Positions 6,090 to 58,516 of a stretch of 64,000 bases of DNA are shown here, piece after piece. The position numbers were made by a program, and so were the translations under genes. Under the pieces are notes generated by a model. It did no database searches. It saw only the letters and a program-made list of their open reading frames with translations, and was not told the origin of the DNA. The stretch's first letter is position 1. The number at the start of each line of letters is the position of its first letter. This DNA comes from a virus, in the IMG/VR virus record IMGVR_UViG_3300025435_001056, positions 64,001 to 128,000 of that record; one strand, 5' to 3'.

Positions 6090-6307
6090 GCCTTGGGAGC
6101 CTTGGGAGTTCTAGGCTTGCGTGTCGCTTTTGGCTTGTCTGCAACTACTGATTTTGCCTTGGTAGCAGGCTTTTTAGTTGGTTTAGGCGCTGGAAATGGC
6201 AGAGCTGGTTCGCTAACTGCTGTTTCCACAGGTGTTTCTACCTTGTAAGGTGCCGTAGCCAGTGGCTCTTGTCCAATTCCTAATAATCTTTTAATATGCT
6301 TTAGCAT
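6086..6307 (-). CDS. Small basic Lys/Pro/Ala-rich protein
   Basis: AAGGAG RBS and upstream TAAATA (plus-strand tattta 6327-6332). Confidence 0.7.
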   Translation of the reverse strand: MLKHIKRLLGIGQEPLATAPYKVETPVETAVSEPALPFPAPKPTKKPATKAKSVVADKPKATRKPRTPKAPKA

Positions 6308-6367
6308 GGTATATCTCCTTGTATATTATTTACCGAATTGACACAGGTGTCATTAAACTTTAATATT

Positions 6368-6383
6368 ATTGCGGCGTCGCAAT
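6368..6383. promoter_or_regulatory. TGC-rich palindromic operator (PhaR-like)
   Basis: ATTGCG-gcgt-CGCAAT immediately before TAAATA. Confidence 0.45.
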
Positions 6384-6437
6384 GATAAATATCTCAGTAG
6401 AAACCATGAGATTCTACACAATCAAAGGAGACACAAA

Positions 6438-6602
6438 ATGTCAACAGTATTCAAACGTATCAAAGAGTTTTTTAGTCTAACGGGTAGCGTAAGCCGCGAC
6501 CTAGAATCTTACATTGCCAGTAAGAATCCACAATCAATCAATGATGTAGAGCGTCTAACTAAACTCTACATGACCGGTGGTGTATGCAGGAGAATTGTAT
6601 AA
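6438..6602 (+). CDS. DUF3563-like small protein
   Basis: AAAGGAG RBS; LESYIASKNPQSINDVERL motif. Confidence 0.65.
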   Translation: MSTVFKRIKEFFSLTGSVSRDLESYIASKNPQSINDVERLTKLYMTGGVCRRIV

Positions 6603-53565: not shown

Positions 53566-53807
53566 TGACAGTACCTATTTTCAAAAACGGAGATGCCCTT
53601 TATACAGTAATTCTGCGAGAGTCTGATGCTCGAAATCGATTGGTTAAATGGTCCACTTCCAGTCGTAGTATCCAAGCTCGTGTTGACGAAAACAAGATGC
53701 ATATCTATGATCACAATACCCTAAGCCTGTTTATAGTGACCTGGACACACGGATGGGATAATGTAACAGTTTGGGATCCTTGGCTCAAACGGCATATTAC
53801 AATTTGA
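53565..53807 (+). CDS. Small hypothetical protein
   Basis: TAATG coupling. Confidence 0.6.
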   Translation: MTVPIFKNGDALYTVILRESDARNRLVKWSTSSRSIQARVDENKMHIYDHNTLSLFIVTWTHGWDNVTVWDPWLKRHITI

Positions 53808-53837: not shown

Positions 53838-54350
53838 ATGGATCCTAAAGATTATACCACATTTGAAAAAATATTAGACAGTTCGATCGCAACTGATTGT
53901 ATCACTATTCCTAATGGATACGGAGCCGAAACGGTTACAGTAAACAATGCCATTGACACAATCACTTTGTCTGAGTTTGACTTCAATTTACAAAACACCA
54001 TGTCTACTTATAGTAATGTTACTGTCACTAGCCCATACATTGTAAGTGGTGGCACTGGTCTTTATACTACAGGTACAACTGCTTCTCCGTGGGCTACTAC
54101 ACCCAGTTCAAAGATCCAACTGAACGGCGAAGACGCCGATATCGAAGTTAATGGATTAAGTCTAATGGATGCGATACAAAAGATTGAAGAACGCTTAAAC
54201 ATACTACATCCAAATACTGAATTAGAAGCGGAATGGGCAGAACTACGCGAATTGGGCGAGCAATACCGCAAACTTGAGCAACACATCAAGGACAAACAGG
54301 CTACATGGGACCGTTTGAAGGCCATGCCACCACCGGTGACTGATCAATGA
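53838..54350 (+). CDS. Hypothetical protein with C-terminal coiled coil
   Basis: TTGACA-16-TATAAT, ATG 6 nt later; IEERL.IL.PN..LE..W.EL..L. Confidence 0.65.
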   Translation: MDPKDYTTFEKILDSSIATDCITIPNGYGAETVTVNNAIDTITLSEFDFNLQNTMSTYSNVTVTSPYIVSGGTGLYTTGTTASPWATTPSSKIQLNGEDADIEVNGLSLMDAIQKIEERLNILHPNTELEAEWAELRELGEQYRKLEQHIKDKQATWDRLKAMPPPVTDQ

Positions 54351-55738
54351 CAACCTGGTCTGATTTTTACGATCAAATTAGAGATTCTTCCTGGCCCGAC
54401 TGCACAACTGAAGATCAGTTTGCCTTGTTGCCTGAACACATACAACAAGAATGCCAAGAAAAATTTGGCTATGTGCCTGGTGCATTTTCCAAGATCTCCA
54501 AATTAAAAAATCAAGTTTTCCCAATAAAAACAGCCACGGCCTGCCAGCTGAAATGGAATTGGAGTACCGTATTTCTTACTACAGAGGAAACCGCCAGTTG
54601 CCATAGGACCAATCATCACAAGTTTGATACCGATCTATTTGATTTTCATAATACTCCATCAAAATTAGATGATCGAAATCGCATGTTGGCTGGCAAATGG
54701 CCTCAGGAAGGATGTACATATTGTCACAACATTGAACAAGCAGGGGGGCAGAGTGATCGTATGACCAACCTGAACTTTTCGGGTATACATGCTCCGCCTG
54801 AATTAGACAATAATCCTCAAGCCATACAAGTTACCCCTAGAATTTTAGAAGTGTATTTTGATAATACCTGTAATTTGAAATGTCTCTACTGTGGTCCACA
54901 TTTTAGCAGCCTATGGGATGCCGAAAATCGACAGTTTGGACAACCGGCCTTTATCAAAAGCAAAAATATAGACAAAAACAAACAACAAATTTTTGCCTGG
55001 TTACGAGTCAACGGACAGTATTTGACCAATTTCAATATACTGGGCGGGGAACCCTTGTACCAGAGCGAATTGGAAGAGTGTTTAGATCTGTTTGAACAGT
55101 ATCCTGCCTCAGAACTCAAGTTGCAAATTTTTACTAATCTTAATACCAAACTTGATCATTTAAAAAAAATAGTTTCCAGAGTCAAACAGTTAGTCAATCA
55201 AAATAGTATTAGAGAATTTGAAGTTACAGCCAGCTTAGACTGCTGGGGTGCGGCACAGGAGTACGTTCGTTATCCTTTGAATTTGGAATCTTGGCAGAAA
55301 AATTTTGAATATCTACTGTCAGAATCCTGGATCAATTTGATTATAGGCAGTACCGTGACACCGTTAACTATAAAAACTCTGCCAGATTTATTGGAAAGGA
55401 TCAATCAATGGAATCAAGTTCGACCAGTTCATCATTATCAAAACAGTGTTAATGGACCCAGTTACATGTTTATTGATATGTTTGGTGATATTTTTCAGTC
55501 AGATTTTGCTTGTGCATTGGAACTCAAACCCGATGCTACCCCAGAACAACAGGCCAGCAAAAATTATCTATTGGGCATTGCCAAGCAATCGGTTGCCGGC
55601 GCTCCAAACTTGCCTGAAATAAAAAAACTGTTTGATTTTTTGAATGAAATAGATCGTCGTCGAAAGACCAGCTGGCCCAAAGTATTTCCTTGGTTAGTTT
55701 TGGAATTTAGCAAACATGGATTTAATATACCTACTTAA
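54347..55738 (+). CDS. Radical SAM protein with an extra Cys-rich region
   Basis: CNLKCLYC, GGEP, TN, SLD, YVRY; N-terminal W..FY..IRD.SWP.C. Confidence 0.88.
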   Translation: MTTWSDFYDQIRDSSWPDCTTEDQFALLPEHIQQECQEKFGYVPGAFSKISKLKNQVFPIKTATACQLKWNWSTVFLTTEETASCHRTNHHKFDTDLFDFHNTPSKLDDRNRMLAGKWPQEGCTYCHNIEQAGGQSDRMTNLNFSGIHAPPELDNNPQAIQVTPRILEVYFDNTCNLKCLYCGPHFSSLWDAENRQFGQPAFIKSKNIDKNKQQIFAWLRVNGQYLTNFNILGGEPLYQSELEECLDLFEQYPASELKLQIFTNLNTKLDHLKKIVSRVKQLVNQNSIREFEVTASLDCWGAAQEYVRYPLNLESWQKNFEYLLSESWINLIIGSTVTPLTIKTLPDLLERINQWNQVRPVHHYQNSVNGPSYMFIDMFGDIFQSDFACALELKPDATPEQQASKNYLLGIAKQSVAGAPNLPEIKKLFDFLNEIDRRRKTSWPKVFPWLVLEFSKHGFNIPT

Positions 55739-55816
55739 TGGCAAAAAGTATCAAAAATTGTAGATTTTAAACCAGACAAGTTATATAATACTAAGTATTT
55801 TAGAGAGTAGAAAAAA

Positions 55817-56076
55817 CAACCAGGCTAACATTGCGTTTAGCGGAGGATTACAAATCAAGATCTACTCCACAACGGACGGGTCAGTGCCGCAAAGCTGACC
55901 GGTATTAAAGAGGACTTCGGAAATCCTCTTCATTGACAAATGGTATGGGCAAACTGGAAACAAAGGTTTGCTTAGAGAGTATGGCACTGAGGCCCGAGGT
56001 CTTGATCTGTCTAAATATCTACCCACCGCCATTGTCTGTGCGCCCATTCCGGGCATCCGCTGAAACGGTCCAGTTG
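55817..56076 (+). ncRNA. Candidate large structured RNA / leader with pseudoknots
   Basis: At least 7 complementary segment pairs (see findings); TATAAT/TAAGTA promoter at 55784-55797. Confidence 0.6.
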
Positions 56077-56094
56077 AACCGAAGGAGGACGACA

Positions 56095-56781
56095 ATGAAG
56101 CGTATCTTATTATCGTTATTACTAGTAGTCAGCAGTTTGGCAACAGCAGCAGAAGTACGGCAGGATCAGGTAGTGTTGGCAGACAACACGACTTTCAGCG
56201 GTCAGATGGCGGAGCATGCCGCTAGTTTCGTTCGAAGCACTGCCAATACCTTAACAGCACCATTCTTGTCACAGCAGGATGTTGAGTGCTTGGCCCGTAA
56301 CATATTTTACGAAGCCGGATCGGAACCCTTAGAGGGCAAGGTGGCCGTGGGCATGGTCACAATCAATAGAACCCAGGACGATCGATACCCACAAGATATC
56401 TGCGGAGTAGTAAAACAACGCACAGTGATCACAGTACCACAACAGGTCACTCAAGTCAAGACAGTCAAAGAAGGTTGGCTACTACCACCCCGGCAGGTGG
56501 TGGAAACTCGAACTCAACGGGTAACTCGTGCCATATATCAGTTTAGTTGGGTAGGACAACGCAATCTGCGCATACGCGAAGATGATCCGCGCTGGATCGA
56601 AAGCCGCGCTGTGGCCGAAGAACTGGCCCGCGGCGGCTACGAAACATGGCAAGAAAAGTATAGCGAAGCCATGAATTTCCATGCGGTGTATGTGAATCCG
56701 GGCTGGCGTTTAAAGCGCATTGGCCGGGTAGGAAATCACATATTTTATAAAGGAAACGCACCTGTTCAACAGGGTGGTTGA
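56095..56781 (+). CDS. SleB/Hydrolase_2 cell-wall hydrolase with signal peptide
   Basis: AAGGAGG RBS; CLA.NIFYEA.SE...GK.AV..V..NR, ICGVV.Q, QFSW, FHA.YV.P.W, GNHIFY. Confidence 0.9.
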   Translation: MKRILLSLLLVVSSLATAAEVRQDQVVLADNTTFSGQMAEHAASFVRSTANTLTAPFLSQQDVECLARNIFYEAGSEPLEGKVAVGMVTINRTQDDRYPQDICGVVKQRTVITVPQQVTQVKTVKEGWLLPPRQVVETRTQRVTRAIYQFSWVGQRNLRIREDDPRWIESRAVAEELARGGYETWQEKYSEAMNFHAVYVNPGWRLKRIGRVGNHIFYKGNAPVQQGG

Positions 56782-56839
56782 CCAAAAACTCGCAAGGTGT
56801 TATAATTGTAGTATGAATAACACTTGCGAGTCGAAATAA
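56778..56839 (+). promoter_or_regulatory. Early promoter with leaderless 8-codon mini-ORF
   Basis: TTGACC-17-TATAAT; ATG 56813 MNNTCESK*, TAATG overlap with next start. Confidence 0.55.
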
Positions 56840-57234
56840 TGGCATTCCATCTTGAAGGACCGTGGTTAAGCACAACTGGCAAAAAGCGAGGCCCCCGTAA
56901 ATGGGCCAGTTCCGAAGCCAAACAATTAGCTCAAAAACGGCAGGCTGAATGGGATCGTAAACTGATTCAGTTTGAAAAGATGGCGCCTAAATTTAGTACA
57001 GGACCTTATAATGCTCCAAGAAAAACAATACACGACTTTATACCAAAAACTCCACCAGGGCGCGAAACAGTTGCTATCCCTAGTCAGGATACTGGTTGGG
57101 TTGCCTGCGTAAAAGCACAAGATACCGAATATACCGGTACCAAAGTAAAAGGTATTGGCACCATGCACAAATCCAATGCTGTGCCTATTTTCTCCGATGA
57201 CGAAGCAAAAGATATAAGTAAAATGCGTCGCTGA
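56839..57234 (+). CDS. Conserved T4-like hypothetical protein
   Basis: YTG...KGIGTMHKSNAVPIF...A.DI..MRR. Confidence 0.75.
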   Translation: MAFHLEGPWLSTTGKKRGPRKWASSEAKQLAQKRQAEWDRKLIQFEKMAPKFSTGPYNAPRKTIHDFIPKTPPGRETVAIPSQDTGWVACVKAQDTEYTGTKVKGIGTMHKSNAVPIFSDDEAKDISKMRR

Positions 57235-57250: not shown

Positions 57251-57469
57251 ATAGCAAAAGAAGAAGTAATCAAAATGGACGGGTTAATAGCCGAAGTGCT
57301 ACCCAATACCCAGTTCCGTGTGGAAATTGAAGGATTTGAACGAGCTATCTTGGCTACTTTAAGTGGACGCATGCGGCAAAACAATATCAAAGTGCTAGCC
57401 GGTGATACGGTAGAAATGGAATTTAGCCCTTACGACCTAACTCGCGGTCGTATTACCCGACGCCGATAA
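57251..57469 (+). CDS. infA: Translation initiation factor IF-1 (probable ATA start)
   Basis: (M)AKEEVIKMDG...E.LPN..FRV, SGRMR.N.IK.L.GD.V..E.SPYDL.RGRI..R; AAGGAG 8 nt before ATA. Confidence 0.92.
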   Translation: MAKEEVIKMDGLIAEVLPNTQFRVEIEGFERAILATLSGRMRQNNIKVLAGDTVEMEFSPYDLTRGRITRRR

Positions 57470-57477
57470 ATATCTGT

Positions 57478-58020
57478 ATGCGTGAAATAATTGACCTAGT
57501 AGAAGCTTCTACCCGACCAGCCAAGCTGGAAACCACAACCTTGCCCTACACTCACAAGGCCTTGGAACCGGTTATGAGTGCAGATACCATTGAGTATCAT
57601 TACGAACATTTGGCCAAGGGCTATGCAAAGAAATACAATGCAGGCGAAGGCGACCCTGACTTTAATCGTGCTGGAAGTTTCCTGCACAACAAGTTCTTCC
57701 CACAGTTGCGTGAACCTCGCGGTGCCAATAGACCCAAGGGTGCAGTATTGGAACTGATTGAAACCAAGTTCAAAACCTACGAAGACTTTAAAGCAGCAGT
57801 TAAAGAAGTGGCCATGAAGATCCAAGGAAGTGGTTGGATATATCTATCAACCGGTGGCGAAATCAAAACCATTCGCAATCATGCTGTTCGTACCGATATC
57901 TGTGTCTTGATTGACTGGTGGGAGCACTCGTGGAGTTTGGATTATCAATGGGACAAAGAGAAGTATTTGGATAACATCTGGAAGATTATCAACTGGGATG
58001 TTTGCAACGAACGGTTGTAG
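57478..58020 (+). CDS. Compact Fe/Mn superoxide dismutase
   Basis: LPY...ALEP.MS..T..YHY, LH..FF, GSGW, DWWEHSW..DY...K..YL..IW..INW. Confidence 0.9.
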   Translation: MREIIDLVEASTRPAKLETTTLPYTHKALEPVMSADTIEYHYEHLAKGYAKKYNAGEGDPDFNRAGSFLHNKFFPQLREPRGANRPKGAVLELIETKFKTYEDFKAAVKEVAMKIQGSGWIYLSTGGEIKTIRNHAVRTDICVLIDWWEHSWSLDYQWDKEKYLDNIWKIINWDVCNERL

Positions 58021-58048
58021 TCATAAATACTCGTGGGAACACGCAACC

Positions 58049-58516
58049 ATGAGAACAACCAAAAAACACAGACGCATTTACGAAGATTATTATAATGTAA
58101 GATTGCCAAGCATTATTGAAATACATCATATTGATGGCAATCACGATAACAATGATATCACAAACTTAATGGCAGTTACTATCGAAGAGCACTTTGAAAT
58201 TCATAGACAACAGGGCGATTACGCTGCGGCATTTAGAATATCACAAAGAATGGAAGTTAGCAAAGAGGAAAAAAGTAGATTGGCATCCTTAGCCGCAACC
58301 AAAGCCAATGCAGAAGGAAAATGCGGGTTTAAATTGGGTCATGCTTCGATCGCTGGAAAGGTAGGCGGCAAAAAAGGTGGCGCCTATGCTAAGGAAAACC
58401 GTACAGGAATATTTGCATTAACACCCGAACAGAATAAACAACGACATTTCAATTCTGTAGTAACCAAAATGATTAAAGCCGGCAAAGCAAGTGCTTGGCC
58501 AAGAGAGGAAATATGA
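58049..58516 (+). mobile_element. Free-standing HNH homing endonuclease
   Basis: EIHHIDGNH.NN...NL......H...H; upstream TAAATA. Confidence 0.85.

Follow-up and report, generated by a model that had tools for sequence, protein, structure and literature searches.

A conserved pseudoknotted RNA and its possible role as a translational leader of a secreted phage cell-wall hydrolase

What purpose does an unusually long intergenic gap serve in front of a cell-wall hydrolase gene of an uncultured phage? The stretch of DNA analysed here, hereafter referred to as the window, comprises 64,000 nucleotides and corresponds to bases 64001-128000 of a 176.6 kb IMG/VR virus record (IMGVR_UViG_3300025435_001056). 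CheckV estimates the completeness of this record at 51%, and at a length of 176.6 kb its source is therefore a jumbo phage. In the window, a gap of 356 bp lies between a radical-SAM open reading frame (ORF; 54347-55738) and the ATG start codon of the hydrolase gene (56095). An initial annotation had singled out this gap and proposed that it encodes a large, unrecognised, pseudoknotted non-coding RNA tied to the peptidoglycan hydrolase, and both claims are upheld by the comparison with related phages. Judging from conserved sequence and pairing, the segment 55735-56094 is almost certainly a real, uncatalogued and phage-specific structured RNA that is read from the plus strand. The fold is conserved, and the RNA is positioned exclusively before hydrolase genes. 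We propose, with moderate confidence, that it functions as a cis-acting translational leader of the secreted lysin gene.

The RNA belongs to a family of 122 copies, 93 of which are unique and full length, obtained after filtering from IMG/VR and JGI metagenomes and located mostly on jumbo-phage contigs. The first relative was found through a hydrolase with 68% protein identity, and its upstream gap could be aligned with visible compensatory changes. Pattern scans for a UUCG hairpin and then the invariant block AGTATGSCA...CCGAGGTCT yielded 30 and 47 viral contigs, many of the recovered viral contigs being 200-350 kb long, and subsequently more than 100 metagenome contigs; the family searches used nhmmer profiles, not a full-length covariance model. 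The copies fall into size classes, including subtype C (about 243 nt), subtype A (about 300 nt), to which the window copy belongs, subtype B (about 333 nt), two longer forms, and short forms of about 200 nt (L023, L012, L221), in which the entire 5' domain with its GGAGG is gone. For 106 copies, the sequence continues for at least 450 nt past the RNA, and in every one of them the next gene encodes a homologue of the window's hydrolase; Pfam Hydrolase_2 was matched in 10 of 10 subtypes tested. The genes on the upstream side vary, with at least four kinds represented. The RNA accompanies just the seven closest of the best 80 hydrolase homologues in IMG/VR and is therefore confined to one clade.

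None of the RNA families searched accounts for this element. With the 4227 models of Rfam 15, there were no matches at gathering scores over the whole window and none at E<=10 on 55650-56200, consistent with the novelty claimed in the initial annotation, and eight other family members gave just three scattered chance matches (E 4-10). The covariance model of the c-di-AMP riboswitch ydaO-yuaA (RF00379) did not match at E<=10, and ARAGORN found no tRNA or tmRNA in the window. A blastn comparison with 50,697 cultured-phage records returned no match to the RNA. Among 185,579 species genomes searched with the nhmmer profile, the RNA was detected on a single contig, L427 (CAITCX010000170.1, 2370 bp). 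This contig holds a full copy and is binned into a Dehalococcoidia metagenome-assembled genome from lake sediment; it is most likely a phage contig that was wrongly binned. The literature search revealed no description of the RNA, the 10,006 candidate viral RNAs in the supplement of PMC10690425 being outside the comparison.

The fold was tested with an 11-helix model on alignment A3, which consists of 60 subtype-A copies. In this model, 94.9% of cells are paired, and 29 of the 65 pairs change on both sides, in 323 cells. The covariation of 0.249 was reached by none of 500 shuffled alignments (0.111 +- 0.004) and slid controls gave at most 0.065, so the covariation expected of a selected RNA structure is present among the relatives. 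Compensatory changes occur in L1, Pa, Pb, Pd, Pf, Pg and stem 1 of PK2; Pc, PK1, L2 and H3 are conserved within subtype A. In the cross-subtype core alignment A5, Pc, PK1 and L2 together are 97.3% paired, with a covariation of 0.124 versus 0.071 for shuffles (0 of 500 reach it). G-U pairs are common, as the initial annotation had anticipated for an RNA, with U-G in 58 of 60 copies at one PK1 pair and G-U in 40 of 60 at the base of Pd, and the RNA is therefore read from the plus strand.

Several helices had been recognised from the window alone. The hairpins Pb, Pd and Pf, together with L1, then listed as an alternative pairing, are confirmed by covariation in the 60 relatives. The Pc hairpin is invariant within the subtype, and its top pairs covary between subtypes, the stem reading AGAGGA/UCCUCU or, in subtypes B and C, AGAGAC/GUCUCU and AGAGAUC/GAUCUCU. 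Other elements were absent from the initial annotation, namely PK1, PK2 and the conserved module at 55735-55790. PK1 is formed by the loop of Pc, whose variants CUUCGG, UCUCGG and CCUCGG are all complementary to the invariant CCGAGG. One of its pairs is U-G in 44 copies, C-G in 13 and A-U in one (A5), and a true double change is found in L279, with the loop CAUCGG and the partner CCGAUG. A plain helix GGACUUCGG/CCGAGGUCU that RNAalifold reported on the first alignment was re-read as the Pc hairpin plus this loop pseudoknot. L2 encloses Pd, the invariant block and a variable segment of 15-40 nt (56003-56031). A further hairpin, Pe (GGC/GCC or GCC/GGC at 55983-94), shifts register among subtypes and overlaps PK1, and is listed only as possible.

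Two of the originally proposed long-range pairings survived in part. From the pairing GACAAATGG/CCATTGTC, the core GACAA/TTGTC was retained and corresponds to L2. From the pairing CGTTTAGCGGA/TCCGCTGAAACG, the core GCGGA/TCCGC corresponds to H3, which is conserved, 91% paired in A3 and formed in full-length minimum free energy (MFE) folds, and displays one-sided changes only. The remaining proposals found no support. A 14-bp helix (55850-63/55997-56010) and the crossing pair TCAGTGCC/GGCACTGA exhibit a covariation of 0.048 versus 0.050 for shuffles (421 of 500 reach it), and only UGCC/GGCA within them is widely kept. The GAGTA at 55977, put forward as a partner of TACTC, stays unchanged when TCTACTC changes. 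The pairings CAAC..GG/CC.GTTG, ATGG/CCAT with TGGG/CCCA, and GTCC/GGAC have partners in variable segments or in helices that covary elsewhere. L032 and L033, which differ on the 5' side alone of the proposed 14-bp helix, are nearly identical except for a block swap, ACACCCAAGCTCT versus ACAAATCAGATCT (A2/A3 columns ~85-97), in the single-stranded stretch before the 3' strand of L1. This swap suggests recombination between subtypes within the RNA.

Table 1. Positions of the RNA elements and adjoining features in the window
Feature	Position	Strand	Evidence and remarks
Box 1, TTAATGGCAAAAAGTATCAAAAAT, conserved 5' module with AUG 55738-40 overlapping the stop of the upstream gene (TAATG)	55735..55758	+	In all subtypes
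TATAAT, possible local promoter	55784..55789	+	In alignments, only in few close relatives, e.g. L016, L034; most members lack it
Box 2, CTAAGTA, almost invariant, opens the main RNA body	55791..55797	+	Invariant in A3; in all subtypes
Helix L1, GAGTAGA 55805-11 / TCTACTC 55861-67, encloses Pa and the H3 5' strand	55805..55867	+	99.5% paired; 3/7 pairs change both sides (GAACAG/CTGTTC variants)
Hairpin Pa, GCTAA 55824-28 / TTAGC 55837-41	55824..55841	+	96% paired; 4/7 pairs change both sides
H3 5' strand GGAGG (Shine-Dalgarno look-alike)	55842..55846	+	Pairs with the anti-Shine-Dalgarno stretch 56056-58; in the window copy also GCGGA 55840-44 / TCCGC 56056-60
Hairpin Pb, GGTCAG/CTGACC, conserved loop GUGCCGYAAAGC	55879..55900	+	99% paired; 4/5 pairs change both sides
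Hairpin Pc, AAGAGGA/TCCTCTT; loop CTTCGG 55915-20 is the PK1 5' strand	55908..55930	+	Invariant in subtype A
Helix L2, GACAA 55935-39 / TTGTC 56032-36 (family TTGACA/TGTCAA)	55935..56036	+	91-94% paired; one compensatory U-A to A-U change (L007)
Hairpin Pd, GGGCAAAC/GTTTGCTT, conserved loop GAAACAAAG	55947..55973	+	8/9 pairs change both sides
PK1 3' strand CCGAGG, within the family-wide invariant block GAGTATGGC...CCGAGGTCT (55977-56002)	55994..55999	+	Helix 99.7% paired
Hairpin Pf, GCCC/GGGC	56042..56054	+	96% paired; 3/5 pairs change both sides
Anti-Shine-Dalgarno stretch, TCC in the window, CCTCC in most relatives	56056..56058	+	Can pair with GGAGG 55842-46 (H3) or the Shine-Dalgarno sequence 56084-88
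H-type pseudoknot PK2: stem 1 CTG 56060-62 / CAG 56071-73; stem 2 (Pg) CGGT 56066-69 / ACCG 56078-81	56060..56081	+	Ends 2 nt before the Shine-Dalgarno sequence
Shine-Dalgarno sequence GGAGG 56084-88 and hydrolase ATG 56095-97	56084..56097	+	Read from sequence
SleB-type cell-wall hydrolase, 228 amino acids, N-terminal signal peptide	56095..56781	+	Pfam Hydrolase_2 E=5.9e-17; PHROG endolysin families

The 3' end of the RNA connects the fold to the ribosome binding site. Stem 1 of PK2 is 100% paired in A3, with C-G in 41 copies versus G-C in 19 at one pair and U-A in 59 versus G-C in one at another. Its variants include CUG/CAG, GUG/CAC and CGG/CCG, as well as CCG/CGG in L003, and by inspection subtype B has CGU/ACG at the matching place. 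In stem 2 (Pg), 5 of 5 pairs change on both sides. By inspection of the aligned type-A copies, PK2 ends 1-3 nt before the Shine-Dalgarno (SD) sequence. A kink-turn closing the SD, which would require conserved tandem sheared G-A / A-G pairs after a 3-nt bulge, was also considered and rejected. Ahead of GGAG, the 3' strand has GA in some copies, and AA, UG or CG take its place in other copies. The CUG that would supply the bulge and the G covaries with the loop of Pg, and the kink-turn conflicts with PK2.

Could the RNA be an independent non-coding RNA, such as a decoy, a scaffold or a ribozyme, that merely shares promoter and gene order with the hydrolase gene? A very strong promoter directly upstream in most copies, the variable upstream neighbours, and a size and complexity comparable to those of large orphan RNAs would suit this explanation. 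Like GOLLD, ROOL, HEARO and raiA, the RNA is large, contains several pseudoknots, covaries strongly and occurs in phages. However, those RNAs are mostly free-standing genes, whereas the phage leader is invariably joined to the SD of genes from a single family and has no Rfam match. An independent role is also at odds with the hydrolase gene that adjoins every copy, the single copy in the 176.6 kb record, the fixed spacing between PK2 and the SD, the lack of any terminator between the RNA and the SD, and the absence of the RNA from the species genomes except for the probably mis-binned contig. We consider it quite improbable.

As a translational leader, the RNA would occupy the 5' end of the hydrolase mRNA (window 55735-56094, plus strand) as a compact fold of about 300-360 nt and act in cis on the translation of the secreted peptidoglycan hydrolase, a presumed endolysin. 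A 5' domain would be built from L1, Pa and Pb, the core would be knotted by PK1 within L2, and the 3' pseudoknot PK2 would end two bases before the SD. In one state, the (C)CUCC/UCC stretch between Pf and PK2 would pair with the 5' GGAGG to form H3, leaving the whole fold closed and the SD free. In the other state, the same stretch would pair with the SD and shut it. Two alternating pairings may in this way set the timing and amount of lysin, and candidate triggers are a ligand, a protein of the phage or the passage of ribosomes through the leader. Both pairings are found in predicted folds. In isolated 3' segments, the anti-SD CUCC pairs with the SD GGAG in 3 of 5 copies folded (window, L017 and L013), and in full-length folds, the anti-SD is engaged in H3 and the SD is free in 3 of 5 copies (window, L026 and L005), with duplex energies of -12.8 versus -3.7 kcal/mol. 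The presumed endolysin role is in line with the relatives of the hydrolase in cultured phages, which are at most 34% identical and annotated as endolysin or SleB, and by inspection a signal-peptide-like N-terminus begins at the hydrolase ATG.

Several observations weigh against such a switch. The same CUCC would be needed by both H3 and the anti-SD:SD pairing; the two are conserved, neither with a compensatory change. The short forms lack the 5' GGAGG, and H3 is therefore not essential to the core function. An ORF that crosses the RNA in most relatives is not accounted for by a pure RNA switch. The phages that carry the copies are all related and form a single clade, and the linkage of RNA and gene could partly be inherited gene order. 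The public runs that carry the stretch are DNA from freshwater metagenomes, with no RNA run listed. The MFE z-score, -0.67 on the plus strand and -1.22 on the minus strand, is no better than that of shuffled sequence; folding energy neither supports nor refutes a pseudoknotted RNA.

A riboswitch is a more specific version of RNA-based control. In this scheme, the knotted core would bind a small molecule as an aptamer; possible ligands include precursors and turnover products of the cell wall, cyclic dinucleotides and alarmones. PK2, the anti-SD and the SD would serve as an expression platform that times the lysin. A conserved, covarying, aptamer-like fold of the generic riboswitch type is present, with junctions and loops that are invariant across subtypes (GAGUAUGSC...CCGAGGUCU, UUGACAA and GAAACAAAG), several pseudoknots, and a platform adjoining the SD with two possible pairings. 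The c-di-AMP (ydaO) riboswitch and the orphan lysM and M23 motif RNAs are known to target genes for bacterial cell-wall hydrolases, which lends the idea some precedent. The ydaO-yuaA RNA (RF00379) and the lysM/M23 motif RNAs are likewise structured, pseudoknotted leaders before peptidoglycan-hydrolase genes, but they are bacterial and shorter, and Rfam 15 gave no match at E<=10. The phage RNA does not resemble any Rfam riboswitch, ydaO included, its gene context provides no clue to a ligand, and at more than 300 nt it is far above most aptamers. To our knowledge, there is no riboswitch for a phage lysis gene. We therefore regard a riboswitch as unlikely.

A two-promoter control of the kind known from the T4 gene e was suggested in the initial annotation. 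The T4 gene e (lysozyme) mRNA contains one simple inhibitory hairpin with a late promoter within it. By analogy, long early transcripts would hide the SD, and a late internal promoter would produce short transcripts with a free SD. In both systems, the mRNA encodes a phage lysis enzyme and has a stretch further upstream that, by its complementarity, could hide the SD, and the strong early-type promoter upstream of most copies and the possible anti-SD:SD pairing are compatible with the analogy. However, the phage leader is a large covarying fold without a conserved internal promoter. The TAAATA at 56012, taken as the late promoter, sits in the segment of the family that is most variable in both length and sequence (56003-56031), and no other promoter-like motif is conserved inside the RNA. 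Moreover, a simple hairpin would suffice for such control, and about 300 nt of conserved knotted structure would be left over. Control of this type is very improbable.

Where does the transcript begin? The RNA body is preceded by box 1 and box 2, which are separated by 54 nt in nearly all copies, 53 nt in the window and 33 nt in subtype C. Of 82 unique upstream regions, 52 have a TTGACA-N16-18-TATAAT promoter (<=1 mismatch) just before box 1, and in 47 of those 52 the sigma70 -10 box ends 11 nt before the box-1 AUG. Given this near-consensus promoter, the RNA therefore probably starts near 55735, not 55791, and in most phages of the family the transcript should begin at box 1, as far as promoter motifs tell. 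The TATAAT at 55784, which the initial annotation had assigned as the upstream promoter, lies about 55 nt downstream of the -10 box of typical copies; it may be a local promoter, common only to few close relatives. The window lacks a box-1 promoter, and its nearest consensus promoter is at 53804. Boxes 1 and 2 each occur only once in the window and do not recur as motifs elsewhere in the 176.6 kb record, which rules them out as general phage promoters. Box 1 may itself belong to the structured RNA. The U-run that follows box 2 (55798-55801) could pair with an A-run (55753-55757) in a candidate helix P0 of ambiguous register. In subtypes B and L050 (column pairs 27-29 with 71-74), the two runs have changed places, with the U-run first and the A-run second, and by inspection the same holds for subtype C. 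This swap hints at helix P0 and at box 1 as part of the RNA.

Two side observations concern these upstream elements. A box-1-like motif (CTTAATGACAAAATAAG, TTTTAATGGCAAG) occurs upstream of more distant hydrolase genes without a detectable RNA core (L281:~1250-1420, L286 and L296), and box 1 may be older than, or independent of, the remaining RNA. The record also contains six TTGAC[AT]-N16-18-TATAAT promoters, all on the plus strand (G000:C1 18814, 51998, 68724, 116549, 117804 and 147072), where about 0.06 per strand are expected by chance. Positions 68724, 116549 and 117804 of the record correspond to 4724, 52549 and 53804 of the window. The phage seems to rely on the host sigma70 RNA polymerase for a set of genes.

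The AUG in box 1 opens a reading frame that requires an explanation of its own. In about 55 of 86 unique copies, this frame is open through the whole RNA for 81-133 codons (for example, in L024:5350-5691, L026 and L041), with 0-2 stops versus 5-13 in the other two frames, although the copies are related and their independence is overstated by these counts. The frame ends at -52 to +32 of the hydrolase start, often overlapping it as UUGA or AUGA, and is kept in 32 of 36 copies with a UUG hydrolase start versus 24 of 50 with AUG or GUG. Substitutions that involve stop codons number 38 in the box-1 frame versus 57 and 85 in the others. At the protein level, no corresponding constraint is seen. 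Entropy is flat across the three codon positions, at 0.456/0.418/0.424 for subtype A and 0.179/0.178/0.162 for subtype B. Synonymous changes make up a fraction of 0.25 in the box-1 frame versus 0.29 and 0.27 in the other frames, and conserved nucleotides fall in different frames in different copies. From these sequence statistics, what is kept seems to be the frame rather than the peptide. In the window, the box-1 frame closes after 10 codons (55738-55770), with seven stops in the family frame, and an open frame is therefore not needed there; the frame is also closed in L003/L257, L156 and others.

These data bear on two further explanations. The first is that the region encodes protein, either an N-terminal extension of the hydrolase from a TTG at 55933 or a small basic protein. 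The frame from 55933 is indeed open into the hydrolase gene in the window, and relatives contain long open frames. This explanation is hardly tenable in view of the seven stops in the family frame of the window, the shifting frames of the conserved nucleotides, the lack of codon periodicity and of a synonymous excess, the compensatory base-pair changes throughout, and the canonical SD, ATG and signal peptide at 56095. The initial annotation had likewise treated ORF 55933 as non-coding, and the flat variation across codon positions and a synonymous fraction equal to that of other frames agree with this.

The second is a translated leader. Ribosomes would start at the box-1 AUG, open up the fold along its entire length and terminate on or next to the hydrolase start, so that lysin synthesis would be coupled to passage through the leader and the fold would set the ease of that passage. 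A kept frame would fit such translational coupling. The arrangement expected of a coupled leader ORF, which extends from a conserved start to the downstream start codon, is present in about 55 of 86 relatives and absent from the window. The preference for copies with UUG starts and the depletion of stop-involving substitutions also speak for translation, and the position of the -10 box in the 47 copies would put the AUG at the extreme 5' end of the transcript. The monitoring leader ORFs SecM-secA and MifM-yidC2, whose translation unfolds a structure hiding the SD, and overlapping stop-start coupling offer a parallel, in that an upstream ORF crosses the structure in most relatives and terminates on or close to the start codon of a gene whose product is secreted. 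In contrast to these systems, the leader peptide shows neither an arrest motif nor a signal sequence, its sequence is not conserved, and the ORF is broken in the window. The missing protein-level constraint, the inflation of the counts by related copies, the closed frames and the lack of an SD before the box-1 AUG further reduce the appeal of this explanation, which we consider rather improbable.

In the neighbourhood of the hydrolase gene, a homologue of translation initiation factor IF-1 (Pfam eIF-1a, E about 1e-18) is encoded two genes past the hydrolase in the window (57275-57466, plus strand) and three genes past it in L024 (7073-7288), and the neighbourhood with this homologue is conserved in both loci. 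A connection of the phage IF-1 with the UUG starts or with the near-leaderless box-1 AUG is conceivable. A basic 136-amino-acid protein (phrog_27048), whose function is not assigned, is encoded at 56824-57234 (plus strand) in the window, at 6627-7037 in L024 and upstream of the hydrolase in L276. It keeps adjoining the hydrolase gene despite differing gene order and is a candidate partner or regulator. L024 additionally encodes a 104-amino-acid membrane protein (6265-6579) that is holin-like by position and absent from the window. Further downstream in the window, the 3' end of an Fe/Mn superoxide dismutase ORF (57478-58020, plus strand) is overlapped by an HNH endonuclease ORF (57911-58516, plus strand; PHROG 'intron-like DNA endonuclease'), which may be a homing-endonuclease insertion.

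To which known systems does the proposed translational leader come closest? SD-adjacent pseudoknot operators are represented by the T4 gene 32 leader and by the Escherichia coli rpsO/S15 and alpha-operon/S4 leaders, which are 30-100 nt long and bind the product of their own gene. PMC10690425 likewise cites the T4 gene 32 leader. As in these operators, a covariation-backed H-type pseudoknot is found in the 5' leader within a few nucleotides of the SD, and action in cis on translation is proposed here. Unlike them, the phage RNA is 300-360 nt long and contains two further long-range or knotted interactions, and its product is a secreted hydrolase, an unlikely RNA binder. By analogy, the leader appears closest in its working to SD-adjacent pseudoknot operators or to a translational riboswitch and closest in its role to the T4 gene e hairpin, and it would be a member of none of these groups.

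The RNA may also be a sensor that times the secreted lysin of a giant phage, either as a new riboswitch or ribozyme class that reads the state of the cell or of the infection, or as a fold that ribosomes read through from a 5'-terminal AUG. We regard this broader possibility as doubtful. If the read-through version were true, a large knotted RNA and an overlapping, sequence-unconstrained frame would jointly constitute a lysis timer. A frame that is kept open without protein-level constraint is in itself a rare and testable oddity. An alignment of roughly 100 copies, three natural size classes and two covariation-supported pseudoknots make this well-defined orphan RNA accessible to structural and biochemical work. 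The timing of lysis is a central life-history trait of phages and has so far been explained almost wholly by proteins, such as holins, antiholins and signal-arrest-release (SAR) endolysins. An RNA of 300-360 nt, comparable to riboswitches and ribozymes in its conservation and knotting, at the ribosome binding site of the lysin gene across an uncultured jumbo-phage clade would add an RNA layer to the control of lysis.

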